Source: Kamptonema formosum PCC 6407
GTDB taxonomy: Bacteria > Cyanobacteriota > Cyanobacteriia > Cyanobacteriales > Microcoleaceae
Direction of reading: 5' to 3'
DNA: 64,000 nt
NCBI RefSeq assembly: GCF_000332155.1
Contig: NZ_KB235903.1
Span: 715,156-779,155 of the forward strand
Part shown: positions 7,028 to 63,042 of the stretch, in pieces
Numbering within the stretch: the first letter of the stretch is position 1
Layout of the letters: each line of letters opens with the position of its first letter
The notes under the pieces: generated by a model
Told to the model about the DNA's origin: nothing
Seen by the model: the letters and a program-made list of their open reading frames with translations, nothing else
The model's database searches: none
Made by a program: the position numbers and the translations under genes

Positions 7028-7055
7028 CCTCATACCCTTAATTTGGAAAACTGCC

Positions 7056-8151: not shown

Positions 8152-9060
<909 letters not shown>

Positions 9061-12436: not shown

Positions 12437-12577
12437 ATAGGGTGGTGGGCATGGGAAGAGTTTTGAGTTAAAGAACTGAGTTAAAGAACTAATTCTCCTT
12501 ACCTTCCCTGCCTCCCCTTGCCTTTCTCTGCCTCCCCCTGCCTCCCCTGTTCCTCCTCCTCCCTATCTTCAAGTCCT

Positions 12578-12922: not shown

Positions 12923-13025
12923 GTAGAAAAGTTTTGAGTTATGAAGCGAGGAAAAGTCCTTAAAATTCTTTAATTCAAAACTCAAAACTCCTAACTCCTA
13001 ACTATTCTCTTTCCCCCTGACTCCT

Positions 13026-14408: not shown

Positions 14409-14409
14409 A

Positions 14410-15708: not shown

Positions 15709-15786
15709 AAAGGTTAGATTAACTCCGCATCATTTGGCTTGGTTATGCTCTTTCTTCTCTTTCATTTTCTCATGAGGAGGCAAGCA

Positions 15787-16191: not shown

Positions 16192-16205
16192 AGGAGATTT
16201 ACCCA

Positions 16206-16664
16206 ATGAATGCAACTGAAACCGCCACCGAGAACACCTCATCTGATGTCATTAAGCATCCCTTTCTTCAGGAACTATTACGGCAAATCCGAGCCGAGGA
16301 TTCCTACGGTTTTTACCGCAATTGGTCGGATGAACTCATCCTCAAACCTTTTGTAGTCACCAAGCAAGAAAAGCGCAAAATCCCAGTGGATGGCGATGTT
16401 GAGCCTAATACCAAAGGACGCATTCAATTATTTTATCGCGCGATCGCAGCTCGGATTGAAAAAGAAAGCGGGCTACTTTCTCAGATAGTAATTGATTTAA
16501 GTCACGAAGGCTTTGGCTGGGCATTAGTCTTTTCTGGCCGTCTCCTACTGGTTGCTAGAACCTTGCGCGATGCTCAACGCTTCGGTTTTGACTCCTTAGA
16601 AAAGCTAGCAGAAGAAGGAGAAAAGCTCACCTTATCGGGAATTGAACTAGGTAAATCCTATTGA
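16206..16664 (+). CDS. NifX-associated nitrogen-fixation protein (DUF269 family)
   Basis: GFGWALVFSGRLLLVARTLRDAQRFGFDSLEKLAEEGEKL and the position immediately after nifX. The ATG at 16206 is preferred. Confidence 0.75.
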   Translation: MNATETATENTSSDVIKHPFLQELLRQIRAEDSYGFYRNWSDELILKPFVVTKQEKRKIPVDGDVEPNTKGRIQLFYRAIAARIEKESGLLSQIVIDLSHEGFGWALVFSGRLLLVARTLRDAQRFGFDSLEKLAEEGEKLTLSGIELGKSY

Positions 16665-16675
16665 GGAGAACTGTC

Positions 16676-17548
16676 ATGTTACATCTCACACCTACTGAGT
16701 TAGAACGCTACCGTCGCCAAATTATGCTTCCTGGTTTTGGGGAAGAGGCTCAAAAACGATTGAAGTCATCAACAGTATTGGTGACAGGTGTCGGTGGATT
16801 AGGTGGCACTGCTGCACTTTATTTAGCAGTAGCAGGAGTTGGGCGATTAATCCTAGTTCGAGGTGGAGAATTGCGCCTTGATGACATGAATCGCCAGATT
16901 TTGATGACTGACGATTGGGTAGGTAAGCCTAGAGTATTTAAAGCCAAAGAAACACTAGAGGAAATCAATCCTGATGTCCAAGTAGATGCAATTTTTGAGT
17001 ATGTTACACCCGAAAATGTAGATACTTTGGTACAAGCTGCCGATATTGTCCTCGACTGCGCTCATAACTTCATTGAACGCGACTTGTTAAATGCTGCCTG
17101 CGTGCAATGGGATAAGCCAATGGTAGAAGCAGCCATGAACGACATGGAGGCATATTTAACCACAATTGTACCGGGCGAAACTCCTTGTTTATCTTGCATT
17201 TTTCCCGAAAAACCTGATTGGGATAAGCGCGGTTTTGGCGTAATCGGTGCAGTATCTGGAACTCTAGCTTGTCTGACAGCACTAGAGGCAATTAAGCTAC
17301 TGGCAGGAATTGGCAAACCGTTACTTTCTCAATTGTTAACGATGGATTTAGGCAGTTTGGAATTTGCGAAACGTCGTCCTTATCACGATCCAAATTGTCC
17401 AGTTTGTAGCCACAAGAGTAGAGACAAATTGGAAAGCAAGTTGAATCAAAAATTCCCAACTCCAAATCCTTCTAGGTCGAGTGCAACCAAACGGGAAAAA
17501 CCGGGTATTCCTCTCCCCCAAAATTCCTTGCCAATCGCTATTTCGTAG
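16676..17548 (+). CDS. hesA: HesA (MoeB/ThiF-family adenylyltransferase)
   Basis: YRRQIMLPGFGEEAQ, VTGVGGLGGTAALYLAVAGVGRLILV, and the CLSC and CPVC pairs. The ATG at 16676 follows a gaggag RBS. Confidence 0.85.
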   Translation: MLHLTPTELERYRRQIMLPGFGEEAQKRLKSSTVLVTGVGGLGGTAALYLAVAGVGRLILVRGGELRLDDMNRQILMTDDWVGKPRVFKAKETLEEINPDVQVDAIFEYVTPENVDTLVQAADIVLDCAHNFIERDLLNAACVQWDKPMVEAAMNDMEAYLTTIVPGETPCLSCIFPEKPDWDKRGFGVIGAVSGTLACLTALEAIKLLAGIGKPLLSQLLTMDLGSLEFAKRRPYHDPNCPVCSHKSRDKLESKLNQKFPTPNPSRSSATKREKPGIPLPQNSLPIAIS

Positions 17549-17658
17549 ATGTTCTCTGCATCTAATTTCTGAAGTTAATCTCTACTTCCTCAGAATTAAA
17601 ACTGGGTAAAATTTACCCGATTAGCTATTAACCCTTACCAAATCTCTTAGGAGTCTTT

Positions 17659-18030
17659 ATGACAGTTACATTAACAGAAGTGGCCGAATTGCGGCTTCGC
17701 GCCTTTCTACAAGGTTCTAGCAAAGCTGAAAATCAGGCACAACGGGGAGTTCGATTTTCCATTGTGGATGGAGGCTGTAGCGGTTATCAATATTCTTTGG
17801 ATATTATCAACGAACCAAAGCCAGATGATGTGCTGGAACAACAGGGGAAAATCCGAGTATATATTGACAAGGAAAGCGCACCTTTATTGGAAGGTGTTGT
17901 AGTTGATTACGTTGAAGGTTTAACTCAAAGTGGCTTTAAGTTTTTAAACCCTAATGCTACTGATACCTGCGGCTGCGGTCAATCTTTCCAAGCAGGAAAT
18001 TGTACTCCTACAGGTGTGCCTTGTAGCTAA
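17659..18030 (+). CDS. hesB: HesB/IscA-type Fe-S cluster assembly protein
   Basis: FSIVDGGCSGYQY and C-terminal CGCGQSF. Confidence 0.85.
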   Translation: MTVTLTEVAELRLRAFLQGSSKAENQAQRGVRFSIVDGGCSGYQYSLDIINEPKPDDVLEQQGKIRVYIDKESAPLLEGVVVDYVEGLTQSGFKFLNPNATDTCGCGQSFQAGNCTPTGVPCS

Positions 18031-18073
18031 CCTTTCGCTGATTTTTTCTTTTTCGATTTCAAGGAATTGACAA

Positions 18074-18373
18074 ATGGCAACTTATAATGTGCGGCTGATC
18101 AACAAGAAGCGAGAAATTGATGTTACTATCCCTGTTGAGGATGATAAATACATTCTGACAGCGGCAGAAGAACATGATATAGAGTTACCTTTTTCCTGTA
18201 GTTCTGGTTCTTGTTCTAGCTGTGTTGGTAAACTAATGGAAGGCAAAGTCGATCAATCAGAGCAGGTGTTTTTAGAGGACGAACAAATAGAAAAAGGATT
18301 TGTTCTTCTCTGCGTAGCTTATCCCCGTTCTGATTGTACGATTCGTACTCACCAAGAAGCTTATCTGGTCTAA
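18074..18373 (+). CDS. fdxH: Plant-type [2Fe-2S] ferredoxin, nif-cluster type (FdxH)
   Basis: 99 aa, [13 protein letters not shown] ... LLCVAYP. Follows hesB as in other cyanobacterial nif clusters. Confidence 0.85.
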
Positions 18374-18540
18374 TTTATCTCTGGTCGATTTAGTCTGTTG
18401 GGCGCATCAGTTGCGGGATTGCTAGTAAGCAATTGGTGCAACCGACAAGTATTCGCACCGAGAATAGAGCAGATGTTTAAACAGAGTAAATTCAATCCCA
18501 AATCTCAACTTGATTAGACTATTGAAGGAGACACTTAACC

Positions 18541-18837
18541 ATGACGACATTAACCGGTTTGACTTTTGGCGGTACTACCTGGACACCCCAATTTGTGGAA
18601 GAAATTAACCAAGATAAATGTATTGGCTGTGGCAGATGTTTTAAAGCTTGTGGTCGCAATGTATTACAGCTAAGAGCCCTGAATGAAGATGGAGAATTTG
18701 TTGAAAATGAGGAAGAGGATGAGATTGAACGGAAAGTGATGAGTATTATTCATCCCGAATACTGTATTGGCTGTGAAGCTTGTTCGCGAGTTTGCCCCAA
18801 AAATTGTTACACTCACAGTTCGCTCGTCCAAGCTTAA
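18541..18837 (+). CDS. fdxB: 2x[4Fe-4S] ferredoxin (nif-specific ferredoxin III, FdxB-like)
   Basis: Two cluster motifs, [11 protein letters not shown] and [12 protein letters not shown]. Confidence 0.75.
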
Positions 18838-18853
18838 ATCACTGCTAATACTG

Positions 18854-19495
18854 ATGGAAGAGGGAGAAAAAAGTCAAGTTTTTGACCGAGATTGGACTGC
18901 TTATTATCAAGCAGTTGCGGGTCGCTCTCCACGCCCAACTTTACTAACAGCTTTAGCCAGATTTGAAACAGAGCAATCTTTTAATTCAAATCCTTTTGCT
19001 ATAGACCTTGGTTGTGGGGATGGGCGAGATACGATAGAGTTGCTGAAACGCGGGTGGCGGGTATTAGCAATTGACGGTCAAGTAGATGCAATTACTCGTT
19101 TACGTAACCGTTTAGATGTTGATTTTAAACTTCTAGAAACCCGAGTTGAGCGTTTTGAATTAGTTACTCTACCGGATTCAGTAGATTTGGTTAATGCTAG
19201 TTTTTCTCTCCCTTTTTGCCCCCCGGCTAATTTCTCTGAACTGTGGGAAAAAATAGCCACTTGTTTGAGGGAAGGAGGGCGTTTTTCTGGACATTTCTTT
19301 GGTGAACGAGACTCATGGGCAGATCGTAGTTATATGACTCATGTTACTCGTAAACAATTGACAGATTTGCTACAAAATTGCTGGAAGATTGAGGTATTTG
19401 AGGAAGAAGAGCATTTAGGAACAACCCCTTTGGGGGAGGAGAGATACTGGCATATTTTTCATATTGTAGCACGTAAACATCTCGAAAAATTTTAG
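18854..19495 (+). CDS. Class I SAM-dependent methyltransferase
   Basis: IDLGCGDGRDTIELLKRGWRVLAIDG (motif I). The ATG at 18854 is preferred; the longer track ORF would overlap fdxB. Confidence 0.65.
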   Translation: MEEGEKSQVFDRDWTAYYQAVAGRSPRPTLLTALARFETEQSFNSNPFAIDLGCGDGRDTIELLKRGWRVLAIDGQVDAITRLRNRLDVDFKLLETRVERFELVTLPDSVDLVNASFSLPFCPPANFSELWEKIATCLREGGRFSGHFFGERDSWADRSYMTHVTRKQLTDLLQNCWKIEVFEEEEHLGTTPLGEERYWHIFHIVARKHLEKF

Positions 19496-19502
19496 GTAAA
19501 TT

Positions 19503-35302: not shown

Positions 35303-35492
35303 GAAGGGGCTAGGGGCTAGGGGCTAGGGACTAGGGAAAGAGGGGGAGATGGGCGAGGGGGGAGATGGGGGAGATGGGGGAGATGGAGAGGATGGGTAAT
35401 TAGCGATTAGCGATTAGCAATTAGCAATTAGCGATTAGCAATTAGCAATTAGCAATTAGCAATTACCAATTAGCAATTAGCAATTACCAATT
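35303..35492. repeat. Composite tandem-repeat block: (GGGGCTA)n, (GGGGGAGAT)n, (AATTAGC/AATTACC)n
   Basis: Three different short-unit arrays abut one another directly downstream of the AAA+ gene. Confidence 0.85.
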
Positions 35493-35501
35493 ACCAATTA
35501 C

Positions 35502-35792
35502 CTATCTACTTCCACCCGCAGACTCATCTTTTGGTGGATTATCTTGTCTCTGGGCGTAAATATTTCCTGATTTTTCAATTAATCTTGAATCTCGTTGCTT
35601 TGATATAATGTCATTACGAGGAACCGATTTAAGAACTGTCGAAGCTTCAGCGACTAAGGGGTGCGCGATGACTACCCTGGCTGAAGGCATCGCAATTGCT
35701 AATGCTGCGGTTCCGGTCAAAAATAGAGAATGCACTCTGGAAAAACTTAGCTTCATCTCCATCACCAAGAGAAAGCGGTCTATGTTTTTCAA
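35502..35792 (-). CDS. Possible small secreted protein (weak)
   Basis: 96-aa ORF with an internal hydrophobic signal-like segment LFLTGTAALAIAMPSA. No recognisable family. Confidence 0.25.
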   Translation of the reverse strand: MKNIDRFLLVMEMKLSFSRVHSLFLTGTAALAIAMPSARVVIAHPLVAEASTVLKSVPRNDIISKQRDSRLIEKSGNIYAQRQDNPPKDESAGGSR

Positions 35793-36217
35793 TATTTCAC
35801 GGCAATCGAGCTCAATGTTTGTCTGTGTAGTTAAAACTCACAAGGTAAGAGGAAAAGATAGCTGCATACACATCTGTGAATCTGCCTACACAAAGACACT
35901 ACTTTTTTACTTAGGGGGCTAGCTTAAGAGTAAATGGCTAATGGCTAATGGCTAATTGGTAATTGGTAATTGGGATACACAGATTTTACAGATTCCTCTG
36001 ATTTCACAGACTAAACGATCGTGACTCTAACTAATCCGTGTAATCCGTGTAATCGGTAAAATCCGCGATCGTAACTGGTAATTGGGAGGAAAGTTAAATG
36101 ATTAATAAGTGAAATTAGTTGCTTTATTGCTGATTTATGGTTGTATTTAACCGTACAAAATTCCCTATAAAACTAAAATATTTAGCAATACACTAGCATT
36201 AACTATAGGAAGCAAAG

Positions 36218-38077
36218 ATGAATCAATTAGAGTTCACGAAAGCATTTACAGCTTTGACACCAAGACAGCAAGAAGTGTTGTTAAAAGTTTTAGCTGGTGA
36301 AAAAGATGCAGATATTGCTGCTTCGTTACATATCACCAAAGAAACTGTGAGAAAACATATTGAAAATATTTGCGAAGCCTTTGGTTTGAGATATCAACAA
36401 GATCATGGCTTATCGCACCGCCCTAATTTAATTGCTCTATTTGCTAAATACAGACCGGAATTATTTAGCCGTTATCCTCAAAATAGCAGAAATAATACTC
36501 AAGTTTTGCTCAGCTACTACCGTAGTTTTGAACTAGATTTAGGTTTAATATCGCAGTTAGATGCGGCATTAAAAGCTAATGGGTGTAGAGTCTTTCAAGC
36601 TGGCAGTAATCTGCGAATGGCAAAAAACGGCCCACAGCAAATTTACGCAGAATTGAATCAAAGTGATTATTTATTGCTACTTTTATCGCCGCTTTCAGCT
36701 TGCAGCGAGATGGTGACAGAAGAGGTAAGGACTGCCAAAACTCTGCAAGGTTCGCGGGAGGGCAAACCTGTAATTATTCCGATTCGGATTAATTGCCCTT
36801 TTAGTTTACTAAACCATGATTTACGTGGCTATCTTCAGGGAATTAATGATTATGAGTGGTTGAAACCTGATGATACAGCAAAAATTGTCACGAGAATATT
36901 AGAAGTGATATTAGGCAGCAAAAGGCAAGAGGAAAAAGTAGTAGATAGCGGCTTAAATTCGTCTACAAATCAAGAGAAAGGAAGAAATTTAGAAACGCCA
37001 ACAGCTTTCCCGATAGTTTATGCTTTGACTCCAAATTACCCACCACAACCAATAGCAGAACCGGAGTTACCGAGAGGACAAGTCGAGTTAGCTTCTGCGT
37101 TTTATGTGGAAAGACAAGGAATTGAAGATCGTTGTTATGAGGCGATCGCGAAACCAGGTGCATTAATCCGCATCAAAGCGCCTCGCCAGATGGGAAAAAC
37201 TTCTCTAATGGCGAGAATTCTTCGCCGCGCCGAGTTGCAAGACTTTGCCGTAGTCCCTTTAAGCTTTCAGTTGGCAGATAGTAAAGTTTTTACCGATTTA
37301 GAACAGTTTTTGCGGTGGTTTTGTGCAAATGCTGCTTTGCAGCTAGATTTGCCGGATCGCTTAGCTGAATATTGGAATGGGATTTTTGGTGCTAAAGTAG
37401 CTTGTAAATCTTATTTTGAAAGATATTTGCTAGCAAATATTACAACTCCTTTAGCTTTAGGTTTAGATGAAGTAGATGTAGTGTTTAGATATCCTGAATT
37501 AGCCGCTGATTTTTTGGGATTGTTGCGTGCGTGGCACGAGGAAGCTAAAAATCGGGATATTTGGAAAAAATTGCGTTTAGTTGTCGTACACTCTACAGAG
37601 GTTTACGTGCCGATGGATGTCAATCAATCGCCATTTAATGTAGGTTTACCGATTGAGTTGCCGGAATTTAAACCGGAACAAGTGAAAGAATTAGCATTGC
37701 GGCATGGGTTGGCTTGGGGTGCAAAAGAAGTTGAGCAATTAATGGCAATGGTGGGAGGACATCCTTATCTGATTAGGTTGGCTTTCTATCACATTTCCCG
37801 ACAGGAAATAACTTTGTCAGAATTGTTAGCAACAGCACCGACTGATGCGGGACTTTATAGCGATCATTTGCGGCGGCATCTGTGGAATTTAGAACAGCAT
37901 CCAGACTTAGCAGCCGCTATAAAAAAGGTGGCAGATAGTGCTAGTCCAGTGCAACTAGAGTCAATGCAAGGTTTTAAGTTGCATAGTATGGGATTAGTGG
38001 AGTTTCAAGGTAATCAAGTAAGGCCCCGCTGCAATTTGTACCGCAATTATTTTAAGGTGCGTTTAGGAAATGAATAA
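36218..38077 (+). CDS. LuxR-type HTH + TIR-like domain + P-loop STAND/AAA-like (AAA_35-type) ATPase
   Basis: HTH: LTPRQQEVLLKVLAGEKDADIAASLHITKETVRKHIENI. TIR-like: VLLSYYRS...YLLLLLSPLSACSEMVTEEV...PVIIPIR. NTPase: FYVERQ...APRQMGKTSLMARIL and LGLDEVDVVF. Confidence 0.7.
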   Translation: MNQLEFTKAFTALTPRQQEVLLKVLAGEKDADIAASLHITKETVRKHIENICEAFGLRYQQDHGLSHRPNLIALFAKYRPELFSRYPQNSRNNTQVLLSYYRSFELDLGLISQLDAALKANGCRVFQAGSNLRMAKNGPQQIYAELNQSDYLLLLLSPLSACSEMVTEEVRTAKTLQGSREGKPVIIPIRINCPFSLLNHDLRGYLQGINDYEWLKPDDTAKIVTRILEVILGSKRQEEKVVDSGLNSSTNQEKGRNLETPTAFPIVYALTPNYPPQPIAEPELPRGQVELASAFYVERQGIEDRCYEAIAKPGALIRIKAPRQMGKTSLMARILRRAELQDFAVVPLSFQLADSKVFTDLEQFLRWFCANAALQLDLPDRLAEYWNGIFGAKVACKSYFERYLLANITTPLALGLDEVDVVFRYPELAADFLGLLRAWHEEAKNRDIWKKLRLVVVHSTEVYVPMDVNQSPFNVGLPIELPEFKPEQVKELALRHGLAWGAKEVEQLMAMVGGHPYLIRLAFYHISRQEITLSELLATAPTDAGLYSDHLRRHLWNLEQHPDLAAAIKKVADSASPVQLESMQGFKLHSMGLVEFQGNQVRPRCNLYRNYFKVRLGNE

Positions 38078-38104
38078 TTAAAAAACTAGAGATAAAAAGT
38101 TGAC

Positions 38105-39277
38105 ATGAGATATGAAGTCAATTTAGAATATACTTATCAAGTTGGGGGCTGCTTGCCGCTAGATGCACCAACTTATATCACTAGAAAAGCCGATATTGAG
38201 TTAATGGAAAGTTTGAAAGCCGGAGAATTTTGTTATGTGTTAAATTCACGCCAAACTGGAAAGTCTTCCTTGCGAGTTAGAACGATGCAAAGGTTGCAAG
38301 CTGAAGGTTTTGCCTGTGCAGCAATTGACTTAACGGCAATTGGCAATCGCAATATTGAAGCTCACCAATGGTATGCTGGTTTAGTTTATAGTTTAGCTAA
38401 TGGTTTTGATATTTTAGATCGGTTTGATGTCAGTCGCTGGTGGTGCGATCGCGAACTACTTTCTCCCGTGCAAAGGTTTAGTCAGTTTCTTGAAGAGGTG
38501 CTGTTAAAAGAGGTTGCTCAAAATTTAGTCATTTTTATTGATGAAATTGATAGCATTCTCAGCTTGAACTTCCTTCCTGACGACTTTTTTGCTGCGATCG
38601 AAGCTTGCTATAATAGACGTGCAGAGGAGGTAAAATACAGGCGACTTACTTTTACAATCTTGGGTGTGGCAAACAAGAGCGATTTGATAATTGACAAACA
38701 TCGGACGGCAATTTTTAGTATTGGTAGAGCTATTCATTTAGAGGGTTTTCAGTTGCAGGAATGCCAGCCTTTAGCCGCTGGGTTAGCTGAGAAATTAGAG
38801 AATGCTGAGAATGCGATCGCAGAGATATTATCTTGGACGGCAGGACAACCATTTCTAACTCAAAAGCTATGCAAACTATTAATACAAAAACTTCTGAATA
38901 ATTGTCAATCCCGAATCCTAAATTCTCCAACTGAAGTTTCTGAGTTGGTAAATTATTTAGCCATTAATCAGATCGTAGAAAACTGGCAAGGACAAGATGA
39001 GCCAGAGCATTTAAAGACAGTGCGCGATCGCGTACTCAGAAAATCAGATCGACCTAGCCACCTGCTAGAATTATATCAGCAAGTTTTGCAAAACAAACAA
39101 ATTGTTGTTGATGATAGTTCTGAGCAATTAGAATTGAGACTTTCAGCATTAGTAGTCAAACGTGAAGGAAAGTTGGAGGTTGCTAACCGGATATACAAAT
39201 CAGTTTTTAACATTAATTGGGTGGAAGAACAATTAGCACTTATGCGCGAGAATGCCCTTCCCATTTTTAATTCTTAA
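38105..39277 (+). CDS. P-loop STAND/AAA-like ATPase (stand-alone paralog)
   Basis: [20 protein letters not shown]...[27 protein letters not shown], Walker [12 protein letters not shown], and [13 protein letters not shown]. This module usually sits at the N-terminus of large cyanobacterial repeat proteins. Confidence 0.7.
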
Positions 39278-39297
39278 TTTTTAATTATTAATTGCTT

Positions 39298-40191
39298 ATG
39301 CCCTATAGCTTGGTTTTAAACTTATTGCCATCTTCGCCAATCCCACCCCAATTTTTGACTGGGCGGCATCTTCATGCTTTGTTCTTAAAATTAGTAAGTG
39401 CAGTAGATACTGATTTAAGTGCTTATTTGCACGATCAAGCTAATGAAAAAGCTTTCACCCTTAGCCCCTTACAAGTATCTAAAAAAGAAGGGCAAAAAAT
39501 TAAGATAATAGGGGAAAATAAGAGAATCGATCCTCTAGGTTCTAGGACTTTACAGTGGGAATACAAACAAGTAATTAGCGGAAATACACCGATTTGGTGG
39601 CGTATTTCTCTTTTAGATGATAGTTTATTCGCCCGCCTGACTCAACTTTGGTTGCACCTAAATTTCGATCGCCCTTGGCATCTCGGCCCCGCAGATTTAC
39701 ACATTACTAGCATCTTAGCAGTACCGCAACCTGCCCAGCCTTGGGTGAATGCGATTTCCTATACACAATTATACGAGCAAGCTTCAGCAGAAGAACGGCA
39801 AATTGCTTTTAGTTTCTGCACTCCGACTAATTTCCGTCAAGGTCAATACGATACACCGATGCCAACTAGAGACACTATTTTTGGTAGCTTGCTAAATCGC
39901 TGGAATAAATATAGCAATATTCCTCTAGATCGTACTATTATCGAGCCTATTTTTCCCAGCTTTTTTGACATTCATACTGAAATGTTAGCTGATTCTCGCA
40001 GTAAATTTATTGGGTGTGTCGGCGAAGTTAGCTATCGAATTATGGGCGATGTTGAGCCGCTAAAGATTAAACAAATTAATGCCTTAGCAGATTTTGCTCT
40101 CTATAGCGGAGTGGGGAGGAAAACACCGATGGGTATGGGAATGGTACGGCGGCTGCAAGAGTTCAGTAATGCTAACGGTTACAGAATGTAA
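39298..40191 (+). CDS. Cas6-like RAMP protein (orphan; no CRISPR array in the window)
   Basis: The C-terminal loop GVGRKTPMGMG fits the Cas6 GhGxxxxxGhG motif. N-terminal GRHLHALFLKL is a candidate His. The size (about 297 aa) fits a double RRM. The start is 20 nt after the upstream gene. Confidence 0.6.
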   Translation: MPYSLVLNLLPSSPIPPQFLTGRHLHALFLKLVSAVDTDLSAYLHDQANEKAFTLSPLQVSKKEGQKIKIIGENKRIDPLGSRTLQWEYKQVISGNTPIWWRISLLDDSLFARLTQLWLHLNFDRPWHLGPADLHITSILAVPQPAQPWVNAISYTQLYEQASAEERQIAFSFCTPTNFRQGQYDTPMPTRDTIFGSLLNRWNKYSNIPLDRTIIEPIFPSFFDIHTEMLADSRSKFIGCVGEVSYRIMGDVEPLKIKQINALADFALYSGVGRKTPMGMGMVRRLQEFSNANGYRM

Positions 40192-40819
40192 GATTACCGC
40201 GACCATCTGGATTTCCATTAGAAATCCACCCTTTCAGCGGGGATTCAATTTCAATCCAGTTAAGATTTTCCACTGTTCTAATGATTACTGGAACGTCTGT
40301 AGGTTTGACTATTTCTCCATTCCTGACTCGCCCTACTAGACGAGACTTAGTGGTAGCATCTGAATGAATTGCTAAACCATCTTGCGCTGAGGAATTGACA
40401 CGGTAACAGGGGTTTTCAGCCAGAGATATTTTCATGGCTATGGCGGTGACAGTAGCTTTAAAACTGCCATTAATCCAACAGCCGTATTCTATCTCTCCTG
40501 AACCTATGGTATTAACATCGCGGCTGACTCTATACCAATAAGTCTCTAATTGTCTTTTCTCTGTATGGGGAGTATCAACCTCTCCAAAGCACTGATTTTG
40601 CAGTTCCATTCCTAACCCTAAATCCATATTAGATAGCCCAAACTCTAATCCTGCATCTTTGAGGTTTTCCCAAGGTTGCCACAAACTCCAACCTCGTTGA
40701 GAGATATTAGTAGGGCCATTTGGATTGTCTGGATTCGCTTTAACAGGTAAGGAGGAAATTATTAAGGTGGCGATAGCTGAAATCGCTAGAGTTGAGGGAA
40801 ATAAATTGGGTAATTTCAT
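40172..40819 (-). CDS. Secreted protein with C-terminal SH3b-like domain
   Basis: Signal peptide ending PVKANP. C-terminal YRVNSSAQDGLAIHSDATTKSRLVGRVRNGEIV...NWIEIESPLKGWI. It overlaps the Cas6-like 3' end by 20 nt (convergent). Confidence 0.55.
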   Translation of the reverse strand: MKLPNLFPSTLAISAIATLIISSLPVKANPDNPNGPTNISQRGWSLWQPWENLKDAGLEFGLSNMDLGLGMELQNQCFGEVDTPHTEKRQLETYWYRVSRDVNTIGSGEIEYGCWINGSFKATVTAIAMKISLAENPCYRVNSSAQDGLAIHSDATTKSRLVGRVRNGEIVKPTDVPVIIRTVENLNWIEIESPLKGWISNGNPDGRGNLTFCNR

Positions 40820-40901
40820 GGTAATTATCTTGTCTAATCCCGTTAGACCTCAAAGGTTAACGGGATGAAAAAATTAGTAGATTGTAAGATTGAGCAATTA
40901 G

Positions 40902-41762
40902 TTAGTTAGTTGAGGATGATTGTATCTGTTGTACCTGTAACCAAGCGGCTAAATCTGCTACATTAGAGAAGTCAAGCAGCGCTTCTCCCAAGTTTTCTAA
41001 TTGAGGGATTGCTAATCTTTGAATCTGTTCGCTTAGTTGTGGTTCTAACTCCCCAAAACGCCGTGAAATCTGGCGTTGTAGAATTGCTACTTCTCCTCGC
41101 TGCATACCTTGTTGTACACCTTGTTGTACACCTTGTTGCAGAATATCTTGATAGGTGACTGATTCTCTCATAATATCCTCTCTGAATAATTGACGAATCA
41201 ATTTTTTCTCAAACCGTAGACCAGCTAGGACGAAAACACAAGCTGAGATGTTATTCCGTTGCTCTGTTTCTTCAATGATAGCAACTTGCTGAGCAACTTG
41301 CTCTAATAAAGTATTAGGGTTGTCGCTTTGAGCTAAAGCAGCCAGGGGTAAAAGTTCTGGTGTAACTAAAAGTGGAGCGGGATTTTGTTCCCACATCCGA
41401 ATAATTCGATAGCGGTGTGTCGTATAATTATCTTGATATTGATTCTGCAATACTAATTCTGAATTAGTACGTTTGAGGAAAATAACTACCTGTTCAATAG
41501 GTAAGCGATATTTCCTTGTTAATATAGCTTTATATTCAAGCATCCGCAAGGGAATTGGCGGATTTGAATAGGGTACTGTTTGAAATTCTAGATGCAGAAT
41601 TTGGTTATCAGTTTGTAGCAAAACAAGAGCATCTGCCTCAATCGGTTCGGGTATAATTTCGGTTTTAAGTACCCGGATATTTTCCGGTTCTGTATTTAGT
41701 AGCCAGCGGACAAATGAGGCTGGAGATTTTTCGGCGAGATATTTACAAGTGTTGTCGTACAT
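40902..41762 (-). CDS. Rpn/YhgA-like PD-(D/E)xK recombination-promoting nuclease / putative transposase (DUF4351 C-terminus)
   Basis: MYDNTCKYLAE..P..FVRWLL, ADALVLLQTDNQILHLEFQT, and a C-terminal QGVQQGVQQGMQRGE + RRFGEL tail. Confidence 0.7.
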   Translation of the reverse strand: MYDNTCKYLAEKSPASFVRWLLNTEPENIRVLKTEIIPEPIEADALVLLQTDNQILHLEFQTVPYSNPPIPLRMLEYKAILTRKYRLPIEQVVIFLKRTNSELVLQNQYQDNYTTHRYRIIRMWEQNPAPLLVTPELLPLAALAQSDNPNTLLEQVAQQVAIIEETEQRNNISACVFVLAGLRFEKKLIRQLFREDIMRESVTYQDILQQGVQQGVQQGMQRGEVAILQRQISRRFGELEPQLSEQIQRLAIPQLENLGEALLDFSNVADLAAWLQVQQIQSSSTN

Positions 41763-41861
41763 GACTCTACAATCGATTTTTACACAACTCAATTCCAAAG
41801 ATTAGGTTAGTTGTTATCTCTACTGATAACTCCGCTGGCTTTTTGATACTAGAGCAACTTT

Positions 41862-42188
41862 TTACTCTTCTTTTGGCTTAATTTCGCTGACAATTTCATA
41901 AATATCAGTATCAGGAACTTTAGCAAATAAATGATTCATCTGCTTCAATATTTCCTGGTAAGCTTCGCTTTGATTAGATGCCATATCTTCTACGCTATCC
42001 CAGAAAATTATGGCAAGTCCTTTGTCTGTCTCCGGCAATTGTAGTAGGTATGCTCCCTTAAAACCATGAGCATAGGTTGATACAGCCTTTTGATAAAGTT
42101 GCTTGGCTTCTTCAAACTTACCGGGTTTAAATTCTCCGATGGCGACGTAGGCAAATTGATGCCGCAGAAAATCTAGAAATTCTGACAT
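41862..42188 (-). CDS. Small ABM/Dabb-like (alpha+beta barrel) hypothetical protein
   Basis: About 108 aa: AYVAIGEFKPGKFEEAKQLY...AIIFWDSVEDMASNQ. Assignment by general resemblance only. Confidence 0.4.
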   Translation of the reverse strand: MSEFLDFLRHQFAYVAIGEFKPGKFEEAKQLYQKAVSTYAHGFKGAYLLQLPETDKGLAIIFWDSVEDMASNQSEAYQEILKQMNHLFAKVPDTDIYEIVSEIKPKEE

Positions 42189-42536
42189 TAGTTTTACTTT
42201 GGGTAAAGGTTGATACACAAAATAGAATTTTACCCTATAACTGTAATTTTAGTAAATGCGGCTGTAAGTATTTATTTAAAAAGAAAAATTATATTGTGAG
42301 ATGGGCAAGACTCCTGTCTGTCCTGATTTAGAGGTCGGTGGGAGGCTAATTTGTCTATACTGGATCGAGATTGAACAAAGTATGCTAGTATTAGCGCCAA
42401 CTGTTGAAGCATTAAGGCTAGACAATAGCATAAGTCAGGAATTAGGATTCATAATTGATATATTATCCTGAATAGCTCAGGATTCAGAATTAAAACTCTA
42501 ACTCCTAAATTATTTTTGAAACTACCAATAATCAAT

Positions 42537-51983: not shown

Positions 51984-52049
51984 AAAAGTTAAAAATTTTC
52001 AACTAATCCTTCCCACATATCAGTTTTCAATTGATTACGTACTGCTCTT

Positions 52050-52125
52050 GATTAGCAATCAGCAATTAGCCATTAGCCATTAGCAATTAGCTATTAGCCA
52101 TTAGCAATTGTTGATTAGCTAACAT
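52050..52125. repeat. AATTAGC-type heptamer repeat that runs into the 3' end of cpcF
   Basis: gattagcaatcagcaattagccattagccattagcaattagctattagccattagcaattgttgattagctaacat. The last 12 codons of cpcF (MLANQQLLMANS) are encoded by it. Confidence 0.7.
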
Positions 52126-52716
52126 TGCACGAGCCCGAACTGCCAAAATTTCATCTGTCTTGATTATTTCCTCAAGCCGAGCTAAAACCTCAGCTAACCA
52201 ATTAGCCTGCACTGTCGCCGCAGCCAAAGCTTGCAATCCTCCCACTGCTGCATAGCGAACCACCCACTCCGGGTCTTGAGACGCTTGTAGCAGGGTTTTG
52301 CAAGCTATTAATTGAGCTTCTGCAACCCTTTCTGGTGGCAATTGTTGCCAGCAAATCGTCCCTAAACCCTTAGTGGCGGCGCGACGCACGCTAAGAGCAA
52401 AATCATTAATGGCTGCATCTACTAAAACCTCTAAACCGCGTGGATCTCCAACTCCCGCTAAGGCGCGAATTGCCCAAGCTCTAGCACCGTAATTATAGCC
52501 GTCAAGCTGTTCTAGTAAGGGCAGTACGGCGGGTTCTCCCACTTGAATTAGACCTTCAACGGCTGCAACTGCGGCACCGGGGTTGTTATAGCCGAGAACT
52601 GTAATTAAAGTGGGAATTGCGCTCTCTGAACCAGTTGCAGCTAAAGCTTTAACTGCATTTAATAAGCTATCGGCTGAATCTGCTTTTTCAACTTCACGAA
52701 TTAGTTCTATTACCAT
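52087..52716 (-). CDS. cpcF: Phycocyanin alpha-subunit phycocyanobilin lyase, CpcF subunit
   Basis: HEAT-like repeats (ARAWAIRALAGVGDPRGLEVL, VRYAAVGGLQ). Position after cpcE. Confidence 0.85.
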   Translation of the reverse strand: MVIELIREVEKADSADSLLNAVKALAATGSESAIPTLITVLGYNNPGAAVAAVEGLIQVGEPAVLPLLEQLDGYNYGARAWAIRALAGVGDPRGLEVLVDAAINDFALSVRRAATKGLGTICWQQLPPERVAEAQLIACKTLLQASQDPEWVVRYAAVGGLQALAAATVQANWLAEVLARLEEIIKTDEILAVRARAMLANQQLLMANS

Positions 52717-52868
52717 TTATTTATGTTAAGACTTACTTACTCACTACTATTTTCTGTCATTACGACCCAAGGGAACTAATCTAAGGGTAGGAAGCCAGCC
52801 CGAAGCAATTGCTACTCTCGATTTTTCGTTGCTGTTACTAAGTCCTGTAAACATTAAGAGAGAGAACT

Positions 52869-53699
52869 TTAGAGCAAACTATCCATCAGGGTCATTACTT
52901 GGACAGATTCATCAGATAAATAGAGGGATGGTGTTTGGTTCAGGTGGTGTTCTAATATTCCTTTAAGAGCAATCAGTTTAAGGCTATTTTCTGCTAAAGT
53001 TTCTGCGATCGCCACAGCTCCGGGCAAATAACCGATCGCTCCTAAATCCATTAAAGCCGATCGCCGCAATTGCAAATCACCGCCCTCTAAAGCTTGAACT
53101 AGGCGATCGCCATAAACTGCTTGACCTGTTAACTGGTACATTGCTCGCGCAGCAGCGTATTGTACCCGTTCTACAGGATGGTCTAGAAATGGGGCAATTA
53201 AGTCTGTTGCCGATCGAGCTTGGAGGGTTCCTAATGCTTCAATCACGGCATCATAAGGCTGTACTAAGTGAGGTTTTCCTGGTACTCGCACCGCAGCGGC
53301 CAAACCCCCTTCTAGCAATTTTACCAGTGCCGGAATGACCGTGCGATCGCCTAGCATTTCTAATGCCTGTACCGCCGCTTCCCGCACGTAATAGTCGGAG
53401 CATTCTAAACATTTAATCAGCGTCGGTATCGCTTGTTTATCTTCCAGTTTCCCCAATGCCCGCGCTGCATTGCGTTGTAGGGAATAGTCCCCCGCTAGAG
53501 TCAGTTCTGACTCTTCTTCCAAAGCGGCAATTAAACCTGCAATTGCCTCTGGTTCCTTAACTCGAAACCGACCAATCCACCAGGCGGCATAATAGCGAAG
53601 GCTATAATCTTGGTGGCTCAAATTCGCGATCGCCACATCCACCGTTAAAGACTCGGCCCCACTCATCTCCGGTGGCAAACCTGCTTCTGAATACTCCAT
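52869..53699 (-). CDS. cpcE: Phycocyanin alpha-subunit phycocyanobilin lyase, CpcE subunit
   Basis: LRYYAAWWIGRFRV, YYVREAAVQALEMLGD (HEAT repeats). Confidence 0.9.
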   Translation of the reverse strand: MEYSEAGLPPEMSGAESLTVDVAIANLSHQDYSLRYYAAWWIGRFRVKEPEAIAGLIAALEEESELTLAGDYSLQRNAARALGKLEDKQAIPTLIKCLECSDYYVREAAVQALEMLGDRTVIPALVKLLEGGLAAAVRVPGKPHLVQPYDAVIEALGTLQARSATDLIAPFLDHPVERVQYAAARAMYQLTGQAVYGDRLVQALEGGDLQLRRSALMDLGAIGYLPGAVAIAETLAENSLKLIALKGILEHHLNQTPSLYLSDESVQVMTLMDSLL

Positions 53700-53888
53700 A
53701 ATTCTTTATCTAGCAATCACCAAGAGGGTGAGAAAATTTTTAATTACTAAAACCATTAATTTAGATCGCCTTTTCTTTCAGACTTCTGCTATAAATGGTT
53801 AATTGCTAACAACTAATTCCCAAATGCTAATTTACATAACTAGCAATCAGTAATTAGCTATTAGCAATTAGTTATTAGCTATTAGCTA

Positions 53889-54143
53889 TTAGTTCTGCTC
53901 GGCTTCGACCGCACCATTTGTCAATGGTTGAATGCTAACAATTGTTCCACCTAAGCGAGCAATCCGTTCCATTTCCTGATTCATCCGGCTGTAAGGCACG
54001 ACGATTAATGTACTGCCAGAGCGAATCTGATAGTCATTGTGAGCCGTGTTTTCATTTTGGCGCAAGCCAGTCACTTCATAGCGAAAGCAGCGAGTGCTAG
54101 ACGAGGAAGTGCTTGGTTTTCCAGCTACGTTTTGACTCAACAT
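53889..54143 (-). CDS. cpcD: Phycobilisome small rod-capping linker CpcD
   Basis: The CpcD domain is RCFRYEVTGLRQN...IVVPYSRMNQEMERIARLGGTIVSIQPL. The ATG at 54143 is preferred. Confidence 0.85.
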   Translation of the reverse strand: MLSQNVAGKPSTSSSSTRCFRYEVTGLRQNENTAHNDYQIRSGSTLIVVPYSRMNQEMERIARLGGTIVSIQPLTNGAVEAEQN

Positions 54144-54226
54144 TGTGCTTTTCACTTCCAACTTTTGAAGATTTATCAACCAAATTGCCAATGCTTAACA
54201 GTTAACATTTAACAGTTAACTGTTAA

Positions 54227-55096
54227 CTAAATAGCAGTAACGCTGGCAATTCTGCCACCCAGGCGATGAATTTTCTGCATTTCATTGAGTAGTGCTTCGC
54301 CAGGTATGACGAAAGCCCTGCTGCTGCGGCGCACACTGGGATATCCGCCAACACGAATACCTGCCACTTCAAGGCGGTACAAACGACCTTCTTTGCCGTA
54401 AGCTGCTGCGCCACCTAAACCAGTGCTAGGAGTAACGTTGGCACTAGAAGGACGATAAGCCCAGCCGTCGTTGCCGCCAGAGGGCCCAATAATCGCACTC
54501 ACCGTGTTGGAACCAAGTTCTCCAGCTAGGCGAGAGGAGTTACCTTCTAATTGAGCGCGATCGCTATTAGCATAGCCCCGGTATAAGCGGAATATGCGGG
54601 TAAACCCAACAGATCTTTGTCCTCGTTGAAAGACAAAGGCTCGGCAGTAAGGCACAATATCTTCACCGAAGTTTTCTTGATACTCTACAGAGTCAATGTA
54701 GGAATCAATATCAGCATCGTAACCTTGAGATTGGTACAAATTCAAATGATGGATCACTTCCGACTCATCGTAGGGAGCGCGACCTAGCAAATGTTTGTAG
54801 TTAAGTTCAATCAACCGGGTTTGGAAACTGTTGTAGAAAAACTTGGTTTTGTACAGTTCCGATTTCGCCACAGCCCGGACAAATTCCCGTACTGTCAAGC
54901 TACCATCAGACAGCAAAGACTCAGCACCGACTAGACGCTCTGATTTCATTACGTAGTCGTTACCCAATAGCTGACGATAAACAGCCTTAATCACAACTTG
55001 TGCGTCTTCTTTAGTCCAATTTTGACGCAATTCAAGCTTGGGTGCATCGCTATAAGCTGATGTTCCTAGTCTTGATGCTTGAGCGGTAATAGGCAC
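54227..55096 (-). CDS. cpcC: Phycobilisome rod linker polypeptide CpcC
   Basis: PBS-linker domain ([12 protein letters not shown]...[12 protein letters not shown]...[15 protein letters not shown]) plus a C-terminal CpcD domain. GTG start after aggagga. Confidence 0.9.
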
Positions 55097-55556
55097 GTCA
55101 AATCCTCCTGTGATTCACAATATCGTTCTTCGATTTGGGATTTTAGATTTTAGATTTTGGATTTATCCCTAATACACAAATAGAGAGATTAAAAATTTCA
55201 GAAAAAGCAAACTTTTCCCTTGCTAAAGCTAGGGGCTTGTTCCCAAAAAATCATCCAAAATTAAAAATCTAAAATCTTACAGCCAGTTGTTGGTCGTTAA
55301 CTTTTAACTGTTGGCGGCAAAACAGTTAATGGGCAACTGATAAAGAACTGTGTCCCTGATTTAGCTAGGGAAATGCTTATGATACTGCCGCATACAGTCA
55401 ATTTTTTATCGGTTTGCTCTTAATTAACTTCCAACCAGAAAACTTGTTTATTGCTCTTTGCAGCATCTACTGAAAACCGAAGATGCCCGGGAATGTAAAC
55501 AACCGCTAACCTATTTGCTAACAGCAGCTTACCTTTCCGGGCATCACGAGCGCGAT

Positions 55557-56045
55557 CTAGCTCAGGGCGTTGATTGCGTAGTCGATGTAGGAGTTAGCTT
55601 CAGAGGCAGCGTCGCCACTTAAACCGTGATTAGCTTTGATGTACTTGAGGGCTTCAACGTACCAGCTAGGAGACAACTCGAATGTGCGGTTGATTTCGTC
55701 GAGTCCTGCAATCAGGTACTCGTCGATGGGGCCGGTACCACCAGCAACCAAGCAGTAAGTGATCTGGCGCAGGTAGTAACCGATGTCGCGGGCGCACTTG
55801 GCTTTACCACGAGCATCAGAGGCGTAGTTATTCCCTTGCATTTGAGTGGTGTAGGGGAATTTGTTGTACACTGCTTGAGCTGCACCATCGGTCAAGCGCT
55901 GAGCGTTAGCGCTCAAGGATTTGGCGGCTTCTAAGCCAGAGGTGGCTTGGCGGAAGCGACCGAAAGCTACTTGGAGTTCGGTGCTGCTCAGGAAGCGGCC
56001 TTGAGAATCGGCGGCTGTCACTGCTTCAGTCAAAGGGGTTTTCAT
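55557..56045 (-). CDS. cpcA: C-phycocyanin alpha subunit
   Basis: MKTPLTEAV...[11 protein letters not shown]...[13 protein letters not shown]. Confidence 0.97.
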
Positions 56046-56147
56046 TGTTGAGGTATCTCCCTAGTGTTTTGCTTTGGTGTTCGTAACAAGTTTGTTTTGT
56101 GCAGATGCGATCGCTCGCGTCTTACAGAATATGACCGACAGGGCTTT

Positions 56148-56669
56148 TTAGCCTACAGCAGAGGCAGCACGGTCGAAGTAGCCACCGATTTCAGAAACCA
56201 AGGAGCTGCAATCACCACGAGTGATGCCATTGGTATCGTTAACGATCGCGATCGCTGCTTCCTTCATTTTTTGGACACCGGCTGCAACAGAACCACCGGG
56301 AACTCCCAGAGCTTGGTAAGTTTCGCGGAGACCATTCAAGCAGCGATCGTCTAAAATGCTGGCATCGCCTGCGAAAGTTGCGTAGGTGACATAACGCAAG
56401 ATGATTTCCATGTCGCGTAAGCAAGCTGCCATACGACGGTGGGTGTAAGCATTACCGCCAGGAGCGATCAATTGGGGCTGTTCGGCGAACAAAGAACGAG
56501 CTGCGTTAGCAACGATGCTGGAAGCGTTGCCGGTAATCCGGTTAACTGCATCAATGCGCTTGTTGCCATCTGCAACCATGCTGCTCAGGGCATCCAATTG
56601 ACTGTTGGCGAGGAATTCGCCGCGAGCGTCAGCTTGGGAAACCACTTTGGTGAATGCGTCAAAACTCAT
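56148..56669 (-). CDS. cpcB: C-phycocyanin beta subunit
   Basis: [17 protein letters not shown]...[18 protein letters not shown]...GDCS. Confidence 0.97.
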
Positions 56670-58292
56670 GAACGAACTCTCCTACTTTTGGACTTAATTA
56701 CGATACAAAACTGTTCAGTTAAAATCGATTCAGGCTGCTAGAGAGCCTGGAAAGGTTGAATACAGACCCCAGCTACTAGGCTGGCAGGCTTGGTTTCTGT
56801 CTTTGCCTCTGCTCTGGCTTTTTCCTGCCTGGCAACGGGCTCTTAAGAAACCTTAGAGAATTTTACACCGTTTATGAGAGGTAACAAACCTTGTCAATCA
56901 GTGTTTTTATTAACTGTTCGCCTGTTGTCTTAACCCTTCAGATAATCTTTATACAATGATGTCGAGCGTTTGTTTATTACAAATTATTACGGAATTTAAT
57001 CTTTTTTCATAGATTAAAAGTGGTAGGACTTAGCTCTAAAATTTACTCCTTTTGATAGATGCGCTTGCAGAGCTTCAACAGTCTAGGAGCTTCAGCTCTA
57101 CCTTAAGTGGGCAGAGTAGGGATTGGGCAGGAAAGACCTAAAGCGCGATCGCCCTTGGGCGATGCCCCTTACTCCCCGTTTTGTTAAGTAATGTAAACTA
57201 AATTAAAATTTAGTATGTAAGAAGCGGTGAAAGGGACTACTACGAAATATTTGAATATTGTCGTAGTGACTTGAGCGGCTCCCGATGTTTTAGTTAGGAA
57301 GTTGAGCGGCTACTAGGACTTAAAAATACCATCCGAACCATGACTATAGTCTAGCACCAGATACGCGACCCAAACATTCTGTGACTATTTCCTCCCTTGC
57401 ATTGCTAAATATTAGTGAAAGCTACTTTCTAAGCTTTCCCTAACCATCCGCTCTCTTGCTCTAGTAATAAGTACCGATGAATGCTACTTTCTAACCAACG
57501 AGCGGGAGGTTGTACCCAATCCTAGTTAACTGTTATAGTGGGTATCATTCCGCGATTTATCGTAGTAATTTTCACAAATAATAGCCCGCTCGCCCTAATC
57601 ATACCAAATAGTTCTGCCCCTAGAATTCTCTCGCAGTTTTAACGACAATCTCTCAAGCAACCAACATTTAGATAGCATTTATATTCATCAAAAGTAGCAT
57701 TTACAAGGTAAAAAAGCCGATCTCGTACCCATGTGTACGTGAGTGTAAAGGATAACATTCTTGGTAGTGCTGTTTGACAAGTCTCGCTTTTTGTTTTACT
57801 GTCACCGCTCGATTTCATACATATAATTACACCTTAACTAATGTTATAAATACAGCGAATCAAGTCGCTATTACCACATATTTCATGAGAAAAAGAGTGA
57901 ATCAAGTTGCGCCTCGAATATATTTTAATTCTAATGATCCTAGTAGCGATTGGAGTCGTTTTTGCGTACACTAATCACGACCCGAAATTCCAATTTCTTT
58001 ACTTTAGTTTACAAAAGTGCCACGATTAGGGAAGATTACAAGTCAAAGGTCAAGACTCCCGCCAGTAGTCAAGCTGCGGTGTAAGAGTTAAAATCCTTGG
58101 ACTCAAAGGATTGACCACAACTACTTGGGTAAAACCCCAAAAAATTGCTAATTTTTATGTAGTGGTGGGTCAAAGTTATTCAGCCGGAGGAAAGTAAGCG
58201 GACACACAGAGAGAAATACGCAATTTTTCTTCTCCCTCCTGCTTCCTTTTTTCTCCCACAACAAACCCCACAAGCCCAATGCCTTAAGCCCA

Positions 58293-62490: not shown

Positions 62491-62660
62491 AGTTTATATT
62501 TAAGATTGTAGATTGACAGATTAAATATTTAATGGTATGTCCAGATAATTTGATAGTAATTTAGTTCTGCGATCCCCAAATCAAGATAGGATGAAAGTTA
62601 AATTTAATTACGGATTTTCCGTTCCATTTCTAATGAGTCTTGTCAGGAACTCAGGGCTCA

Positions 62661-62728
62661 AGCCACTGAGCTTGTAAGAAGTTGCAAGCTATTCTGACCA
62701 GCCTAAGCCTTAAGTGGCTACGTTTTTT
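62661..62728 (+). terminator. Intrinsic-terminator-like structure with T6 tail
   Basis: The outer stem is agccact (62661-62667) / agtggct (62713-62719). The inner stem is agcttg/caagct, followed by acgTTTTTTg. Confidence 0.45.
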
Positions 62729-63042
62729 GAGTCACGACACCGGCGAATGCGAAGCTAGTTTTCCGCTCTGTCATCTGCAATTAAACAGTTTTAAAGTCAC
62801 TGAAACAGTGTTGCAGGTTTAACAAGCTCTTAAAACATTGGCGAAGCTAACATCACCCCGCAAGGGAGGCTCGAAAGAGCAAAACATTATGCGTACAGGA
62901 TTGCGAGGTTTGAGATGGTAATTGTCCCATCGAAAGTACATTACAAAAGTACACCAAGCTAAACAATCCCAAGGCGGTAATGGACAAAAAAGATTCACGG
63001 TGGTTAAAACCACCGTGTCGTTTCCCACATACCGAGTTTTTT

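Follow-up and report, generated by a model that had tools for sequence, protein, structure and literature searches.

A stand-alone type I-D Cas6d at a conserved chromosomal site in Kamptonema and other Microcoleaceae, with a probable role in processing remote CRISPR repeat transcripts

Thermus thermophilus HB8 possesses a Cas6 endoribonuclease, TtCas6A (TTHA0078; PDB 4c8y/4c8z/4c97), that cleaves the hairpin repeats of remote CRISPR arrays in trans and leaves an 8-nt handle (PMC3902920). In Anabaena sp. PCC 7120, Cas6 enzymes were reported to process remote orphan arrays that lack cas genes, and two of the enzymes to cross-recognise their substrates (10.1101/2020.04.14.041012; Reimann et al. 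2020). Here, these systems are compared with a cas6 gene of the cyanobacterium Kamptonema formosum PCC 6407, which lies in a 64,000-nt stretch of contig NZ_KB235903.1 (positions 715,156 to 779,155; hereafter the window, whose own numbering is used throughout):

39298-40191, + strand: stand-alone cas6d gene for a CRISPR RNA (crRNA) endoribonuclease paralogue, identified by Pfam, NCBIfam and PADLOC matches, the Cas6 fold and identity to a protein of strain CS-326

TtCas6A resembles the stand-alone (solo) Cas6d described below in that it coexists with a second, operon-embedded paralogue, TtCas6B, and no solved structure is closer to the window protein than those of these two Thermus enzymes. However, TtCas6A shares only 22-27% identity with the window protein and belongs to a different Cas6 subfamily, and action in trans has been shown biochemically for TtCas6A but is inferred for the window Cas6d. 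The type I-D Cas6d enzymes of cyanobacteria, such as Synechocystis Cas6-1 (Slr7014) and Anabaena Alr1566, belong to the same family as the window protein and share its GRHLHALF, LHD and GVGRKTPMGMGM motifs. Canonical cas6d genes are located between csc1 and cas4-cas1-cas2, 2-3 kb from an array, whereas the window gene has none of these within 24-39 kb, and its product further differs from the canonical enzymes at 13 fixed positions and by a basic loop peculiar to its clade. Both cas6 genes of Anabaena PCC 7120 are likewise inside cas cassettes, in contrast to the isolated window gene.

The open reading frame (ORF) at 39298-40191 on the forward strand encodes a product of 297 aa. In a mechanical ORF list this frame opens 6 nt earlier, at TTG 39292; however, the N-terminus of every homologue is MPHSL or MPYSL, and hence ATG 39298 is the correct start. 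The protein matches the Pfam families CRISPR_Cas6_N (PF19308; 2.2e-69, 232.8 bits against a cut-off of 23.9) and CRISPR_Cas6 (PF10040; 4.6e-22, 79 bits against a cut-off of 25), and NCBIfam TIGR01877 with 79.8 bits (cut-off 58.65). The PADLOC Cas6d model PDLC02042 is matched at 3.1e-138 over all of its profile positions (1-271 of 271), and the nearest relatives outside the solo group defined below all lie within type I-D loci. A Kamptonema animale CS-326 protein named Cas6 by NCBI is 99% identical. An AlphaFold model (predicted local distance difference test score, pLDDT, 69) contains two beta-alpha-beta domains in the tandem ferredoxin/RNA recognition motif (RRM) arrangement, and a Foldseek search of the PDB gave Cas6 proteins for every one of the 30 best matches, headed by TtCas6B 4c9d (E 1.5e-16, TM score 0.65-0.72). 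TtCas6B and TtCas6A are the best PDB matches both by structure and by sequence. The product is therefore unambiguously a full-length Cas6d of the type I-D family and not merely Cas6-like. The original prediction, made from the DNA letters alone, had described a 297-aa Cas6-type protein of a size compatible with two RRM folds; the profile matches and the two-domain model bear this out, and the Cas6/RAMP-superfamily fold that was to be looked for by structure prediction was obtained.

The active site of TtCas6B consists of His23, His42 and Tyr256, of which His42 is the main catalytic residue and His23 has a minor role in stabilising the scissile phosphate; the RNA is contacted by Ala145, Ser147 and Thr153 of a beta-hairpin and by Lys253 (PMC3902920). 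Equivalent residues in the window protein were assigned from a phmmer alignment to TtCas6B (4c98/4c9d), on which the catalytic mapping rests, and invariance was scored over 36 homologues, both solo and array-linked. The relevant segments are as follows.

39373-39375, + strand: His26 codon (GRHLHALF motif), counterpart of His23 in TtCas6B (phmmer alignment, PMC3902920, invariance)
39430-39432, + strand: His45 codon (LHD motif), counterpart of His42 in TtCas6B (phmmer alignment, PMC3902920, invariance)
39478-39552, + strand: Lys/Arg-rich variable loop, residues 61-85, found by alignment in the solo clade only and predicted to be disordered (pLDDT <50)
39820-39873, + strand: equivalent of the beta-hairpin that enters the RNA major groove, TPTNFRQGQYDTPMPTRD, residues 175-192 (TtCas6B alignment, invariant columns)
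40108-40143, + strand: G-rich loop GVGRKTPMGMGM, residues 271-282, including Lys275 (TtCas6B alignment, invariance)

H26 aligns with TtCas6B His23 and H45 with His42, so that H45 is likely, as judged by the alignment, to be the general-acid catalytic histidine. K275 in the G-rich loop corresponds to the RNA-contacting Lys253, and the position of Tyr256 is occupied by Met278 in all Cas6d proteins. The loop itself (GVGRKTPMGMG, residues 271-281) conforms to the GhGxxxxxGhG pattern and aligns to the G-loop of TtCas6B. All 36 homologues keep the histidines of GRHLHALF, including H26, as well as H45, R180, Q181 and K275 and every residue of the G-loop. The C-terminal G-rich loop pointed out in the original prediction is thus present and invariant, whereas the catalytic histidine that it placed in GRHLHALF has to be reassigned: the histidines of that motif are indeed invariant, but H26 matches the minor His23, and the main His42 has its counterpart in H45. 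From these motifs, the window Cas6d is predicted to be an intact, catalytically competent endoribonuclease.

No CRISPR array was found in the window by TRF, a direct-repeat scan or a spaced-repeat scan, nor was a copy of the type I-D repeat core present there with up to three mismatches allowed. A fuzzy search with the repeat core revealed no repeat-like hairpin in 1.13 Mb of sequence from the window and the other solo loci, and a scan for a hairpin followed by ATTGAAA, aimed at a solitary repeat, gave nothing. Likewise, tblastn with cas3', cas10d, csc2, csc1, cas4, cas1 and cas2 gave no match in the window or the 61 other solo loci, no Cas family was recognised among the other window ORFs of at least 150 aa, and no array or cas gene is located within 10 kb of the gene in the 62 solo loci. 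The window Cas6d is thus not part of a type I-D locus, which would comprise neighbouring cas genes and an array. The only repeats near cas6 are short tandem repeats of heptamers and nonamers (35305-35500, 35930-36065 and 39263-39298 by TRF), and the earlier description of them as 7-9-nt microsatellites and not CRISPR repeats agrees with the three scans. Spaced repeats flagged in five other loci (L021, L030, L038, L048 and L051) proved to be tandem repeats lacking spacers and were rejected as CRISPR arrays. Spacer-less tandem repeats of 57-58 nt, each with two short hairpins, recur in several Microcoleus and Lyngbya loci:

L021 ~7290-7500, L030 ~17620-17830 and L051 ~18890-19100: 57-58-nt tandem repeats GGGGAAACTCGGCGATTGAAATCGCGTCTACACAGACAAAACCCGCCTGCGCGGGTT, non-CRISPR

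A search for Cas6 loci with one genome per species returned 80 loci, which fell into two cleanly separated groups. The solo group comprises the window and 61 further loci from Kamptonema, about 50 species of Microcoleus, Tychonema, Lyngbya CCAP 1446/10 and some metagenome-assembled genomes (MAGs), and it is monophyletic in a neighbour-joining tree with a bootstrap value of 95/100; in the comparison with array-associated Cas6 that had been proposed, the solo copies therefore form a clade of their own. A convergent gene for an ABM-like protein follows cas6 in 59 of the 61 solo loci (tblastn), abutting it in most. In the window, this anchor gene is somewhat displaced:

41862-42218, - strand: ABM-like gene, 118 aa, convergent neighbour and synteny anchor (tblastn, weak ABM match, downstream synteny with Microcoleus)

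Downstream synteny between the window and Microcoleus spans ~10 kb of Microcoleus sequence, and the upstream side is not conserved. The context in Microcoleus is one of housekeeping genes: upstream of cas6 lie genes for a DeoC-type aldolase, an M1 peptidase and a NUDIX protein, and downstream of it lie the ABM-like gene, a gene for a response regulator and HEAT-repeat genes; in the window, HEAT-repeat genes further downstream precede phycobilisome genes. The setting in the window is that of the core chromosome, since cas6 shares it with a nitrogenase cluster at ~4000-19500 (NifH, NifU, four Oxidored_nitro proteins, FeMo-cofactor proteins and a class-V aminotransferase) and, at ~52000-56700, with a phycobilisome operon that includes lyase-like genes with HEAT repeats. 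The solo cas6d is vertically inherited and occupies one chromosomal site across the Microcoleaceae. A stand-alone Cas6 paralogue is of an already known kind; conservation throughout a family at a fixed chromosomal site is the less ordinary trait, and we know of no description of family-wide syntenic conservation for TTHA0078. Further isolated cas6d genes occur outside the solo clade of the Microcoleaceae. That of an uncultured Microcoleus MAG (L062, 6692-7573) is sister to this clade and located beside DUF1822, CHAT-CHASE2 and MOSC genes, and that of Caldora (L073, 5634-6479) is flanked by transposases.

The isolation of the solo gene from cas genes and arrays, together with its loss in one close relative (L085), could be taken as signs of a decaying, functionless remnant of a lost type I-D locus. 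Such a state of decay is very improbable, as the reading frame is intact in 62 of 62 solo loci, the catalytic and RNA-binding motifs are all invariant, and pairwise ratios of non-synonymous to synonymous substitution (dN/dS) within the solo clade are 0.10-0.17, with dS ranging from 0.4 to saturation. Array-linked Cas6d proteins gave similar dN/dS values of 0.05-0.12. The solo cas6d is hence a long-lived gene under purifying selection and not a remnant.

The likely substrate is indicated by the relatives that lie beside arrays. In sixteen array-linked loci (Nostoc, Coleofasciculaceae, Symploca and others), the surroundings are those of a type I-D-type cas locus: cas4-cas1-cas2 is present, as are the effector genes if the contig extends far enough upstream. 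An array lies 2-3 kb downstream in 13 of them, and none was seen in the remaining three, two of which end at or just past the cas genes. Two loci considered as type III (L060 and L077) were rejected as such, being type I-D variants with Cas3d. The 18 arrays found beside relatives all have 37-nt repeats (for example, as RNA, GCCGAAAACAACCTAAAACCCTATCAGGGATTGAAAC) with a variable 5' half and invariant positions 19-24 and 26-37, giving CCCTAT(C/T)AGGGATTGAAAC. The enzymes beside these 18 arrays diverge from one another by up to 39% and are 55-72% identical to the solo Cas6d copies. Over ungapped columns, the window Cas6d is 60-72% identical to the array-linked enzymes, as compared with 61-98% among themselves. 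Because the window protein falls within the identity range of the canonical enzymes and keeps all mapped contacts, it is expected to share their substrate.

According to the proposed mechanism, the solo Cas6d would bind cyanobacterial repeats of the type I-D class, ...AAYCCCTAT(C/T)AGGG/ATTGAAAC (slash, cleavage site), at a short GC-rich hairpin in their 3' half, and would cut at the base of the CCC/GGG hairpin to leave a ATTGAAAC handle, with His45 serving as the general acid and His26, Arg180 and Lys275 holding the RNA. The substrate transcripts would originate from arrays elsewhere in the genome, either those of type I-D loci, or cas-less orphan arrays, or those of modules lacking their own cas6, and crRNA maturation would thereby be supplied or modulated in trans. 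The TIR/AAA_35 genes that precede cas6 in Kamptonema (see below) would be an unrelated module inserted beside it. CRISPR-Cas systems of filamentous cyanobacteria are fragmented, and many of their arrays lack cas genes; in Arthrospira, cas clusters and arrays are unlinked.

Genomes with a solo gene do contain arrays of the expected kind. A search with Csc2 revealed type I-D systems in many Microcoleus strains, and six type I-D loci from five genomes (Microcoleus and Oscillatoriaceae Prado104) were read. Three of these accompany a solo gene in the genomes compared: L081 and the solo gene L038 in Microcoleus D2_18a_B4, L082 and L014 in Microcoleus AR_TQ3_B6, and L109 and L059 in Prado104, where the contig of L109 ends just after cas6. 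The others are L110 of M. vaginatus GB2-A3 and L111 and L112 of two more strains. Five of the six have the order cas3'-cas10d-csc2-csc1-cas6-cas4-cas1-cas2 followed by an array, and the arrays in D2_18a_B4, AR_TQ3_B6 and others comprise 51-76 repeats. Type I-D Cas10d was also found in Tychonema LEGE 07203, whose solo gene is L041, and type I-D loci have been described in Tychonema (PMC9958718); six CRISPR arrays are known from Microcoleus asticus (PMC7251104). According to the Cas10d search, 'Kamptonema cortianum' likewise has a type I-D system, whereas K. animale had no named match, and the literature gave nothing specific on the CRISPR content of Kamptonema.

All six type I-D loci have their own cas6, which rules out the solo gene as a relocated cas6 of such a locus. 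In the three genomes compared, the solo copy and the Cas6d of the type I-D locus share only ~58% identity, and the tight clustering with the Cas6 of a complete locus in the same genome, named at the outset as an outcome that would refute the original prediction, was not seen. The solo gene is a second paralogue, since the co-resident type I-D locus has its own, ~58% identical Cas6d.

Taken together, the solo Cas6d is an intact enzyme that probably processes transcripts of remote CRISPR repeats in trans and has no functional relation to the neighbouring NTPases. Action in trans on a distant array was one of the two options offered in the original prediction; it is the best reading and fits all findings, albeit as an inferred and not a demonstrated activity. 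Several observations weigh against it. In this Kamptonema, the array scans covered the 64-kb window and gave no array, and neither a cas6-less module nor an orphan array was identified in any of the genomes with a solo gene. In the five genomes whose type I-D locus was read, that locus has its own Cas6d, so that the solo copy is not needed for those arrays. The solo clade differs from array-linked Cas6d at 13 fixed positions, and the basic loop of residues 61-85 is confined to it. One of the fixed changes, A178N, lies in the recognition hairpin (residues 175-192) beside the invariant R180 and Q181 and two residues ahead of the position that corresponds to Ala145, an RNA contact in TtCas6B; therefore, the specificity may have shifted. 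Finally, the loss of cas6 from L085 means that the gene is dispensable at least there.

Some of these points would suit a domesticated Cas6, that is, a paralogue taken over by the host to process or bind a hairpin in cellular RNAs other than CRISPR transcripts, whether as an RNase with site specificity or as a regulator that binds RNA. CRISPR-Cas loci are usually mobile and patchy in distribution, and the family-wide syntenic, vertical inheritance of solo cas6d among housekeeping genes, the purifying selection acting on it, its coexistence with a type I-D locus that has its own Cas6d, and the fixed changes specific to its clade, among them the one in the hairpin for RNA recognition, together with the new loop of basic residues, are all in favour of domestication. 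However, no candidate for a non-CRISPR substrate emerged, as no repeat-like hairpin was present in the window or the 1.13 Mb of solo-locus sequence and no Rfam match was obtained nearby. Moreover, the equivalents of the active-site and RNA-contact residues are the same as in canonical Cas6d, the divergence from the canonical enzymes does not exceed that among canonical enzymes with one substrate, and the gene has been lost in L085. Domestication is thus considered unlikely. The fuller proposal that the enzyme became fixed at a housekeeping locus and is selected apart from CRISPR immunity for action on a cellular hairpin RNA, with the basic loop and A178N marking the shift in specificity, is less likely still.

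A rival to the preferred reading is a regulatory one, in which the solo Cas6d would bind the repeats of the type I-D Cas6d mainly to limit or tune the supply of crRNA to the type I-D or other effector complexes and would not itself be the supplier. The predicted substrate class is common to the solo enzyme and its type I-D paralogue in the same genome. In addition, cross-recognition by a second Cas6 is reported to limit the accumulation of type I-D crRNA in Anabaena (10.1101/2020.04.14.041012), and a Cas6 associated with type III in Thermus has been reported as a negative regulator of type I-B (PMC12102369). Sequence analysis does not separate competition from simple redundancy. A mainly competitive role appears distinctly improbable on the present data.

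In the window, cas6 is preceded by two genes for NTPases, a 619-aa HTH(LuxR)-TIR-AAA_35 protein (36218-38077) and a shorter AAA_35 protein of 390 aa (38105-39277), both assigned by Pfam:

36218-39277, + strand: two-gene module HTH(LuxR)-TIR-AAA_35 plus AAA_35 (Pfam; pair conserved in Cas6-less loci)

The second option of the original prediction was that Cas6 had been recruited as an RNA sensor or processor for these NTPases, in a common defence system. The stop codon of the AAA_35 gene is separated from the start of cas6 by a gap of 20 nt on the same strand, and no promoter-like site was found in this gap, so that cas6 is probably co-transcribed with the NTPase genes in Kamptonema. The arrangement is kept in the three Kamptonema loci (window, L001 and L002). 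Those three loci are the only ones in which the pair precedes cas6; 59 of the 62 solo loci lack it. Conversely, a metagenome scan with the TIR-AAA_35 protein gave 26 loci, of which 12 keep the pair, at 50-85% identity, and none contains Cas6. Locus L085 is collinear with 36634-39246 and 41862-42258 of the window and lacks 39247-41861, so that the NTPase pair directly adjoins the ABM gene and cas6 is absent. Between genera, gene order is lost on the upstream side of cas6 but holds downstream, and conserved co-occurrence of Cas6 with the NTPases across lineages was not found. Since the pair is widespread without Cas6 and is kept in the cas6-less L085, its link to cas6 is fortuitous, and the pair is, as far as gene neighbourhoods can tell, an independent unit functionally untied to cas6. 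A joint function with the NTPases is therefore hardly credible, and the proposal of recruitment by them was abandoned.

The NTPase module resembles a STAND-like conflict system with a TIR effector; apart from weak matches to CARF-HTH and SAVED_TIR domains, PADLOC contains no model that covers it. Further upstream, the 33653-35299 gene (+ strand) encodes a 548-aa AAA+ ATPase of the Cdc48/FtsH type, whose best PADLOC matches are to IetA (3.8e-27) and which scores far below the NCBIfam IteA cut-off (85 vs 510 bits). No protease partner was found near it, and the gene is conserved beside the TIR-AAA_35 gene in L001 and L083. In the 0.9-kb intergenic region between the AAA+ and TIR-AAA_35 genes, the conserved part is a small ORF (~35502-35792, - strand) with a signal-peptide-like N-terminus (MKLSFSRVHSLFLTGTAALAIAMP...), which is present in L001 and L083, has no Pfam match, and is flanked by long heptamer arrays, including AATTAGC x 14.7 at 35398-35500 (TRF). 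Transcripts of the region at 35.8-36.2 kb, just beyond this ORF, had been put forward as candidate RNAs for Cas6; no Rfam match was obtained in that region beyond a sub-threshold one on a microsatellite, and no signal of a structured RNA is present there.

On the other side of cas6, two inserted genes (40172-40819 and 40902-41798) separate it from the ABM-like gene. The first of these converges on cas6:

40172-40191, no strand assigned: cas6 and the SH3_3-like gene convergent to it overlap here by 20 nt at their 3' ends (ORF coordinates)

The overlap with a secreted SH3b-like gene, as originally noted, is real; the product of 40172-40819 has a signal-peptide-like N-terminus and a weak, sub-threshold SH3_3 match (24.6 bits against a cut-off of 27). 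In the window, L001, L002 and L003, an SH3-like gene separates cas6 from the ABM-like gene, and the window adds an Rpn-like gene. The two genes of 40172-41798 (- strand), for the secreted SH3_3-like protein and an Rpn-family/DUF4351 protein (PD-(D/E)XK transposase-like), are both missing at the Microcoleus site; the Rpn gene is missing from L001, and both are missing from L085. Near the end of the window, a HEARO RNA (OMEGA-type, associated with an HNH endonuclease) was recognised at 62642-62856 (+ strand; Rfam RF02033, 152 bits against a gathering threshold of 83), followed by an ORF of 153 aa at 62980-63441.

The locus illustrates that adjacency alone is a poor guide to function, and the TIR/AAA_35 pair merits a separate study. 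Were the solo Cas6d to act on RNA of the cell instead, it would clearly exemplify how a Cas nuclease can be recruited into the RNA metabolism of its host. If, as is thought probable, it acts in trans on remote repeats, it would provide these cyanobacteria with constant, locus-independent crRNA maturation for resident, orphan or newly acquired arrays, or with a means of tuning the crRNA supply.

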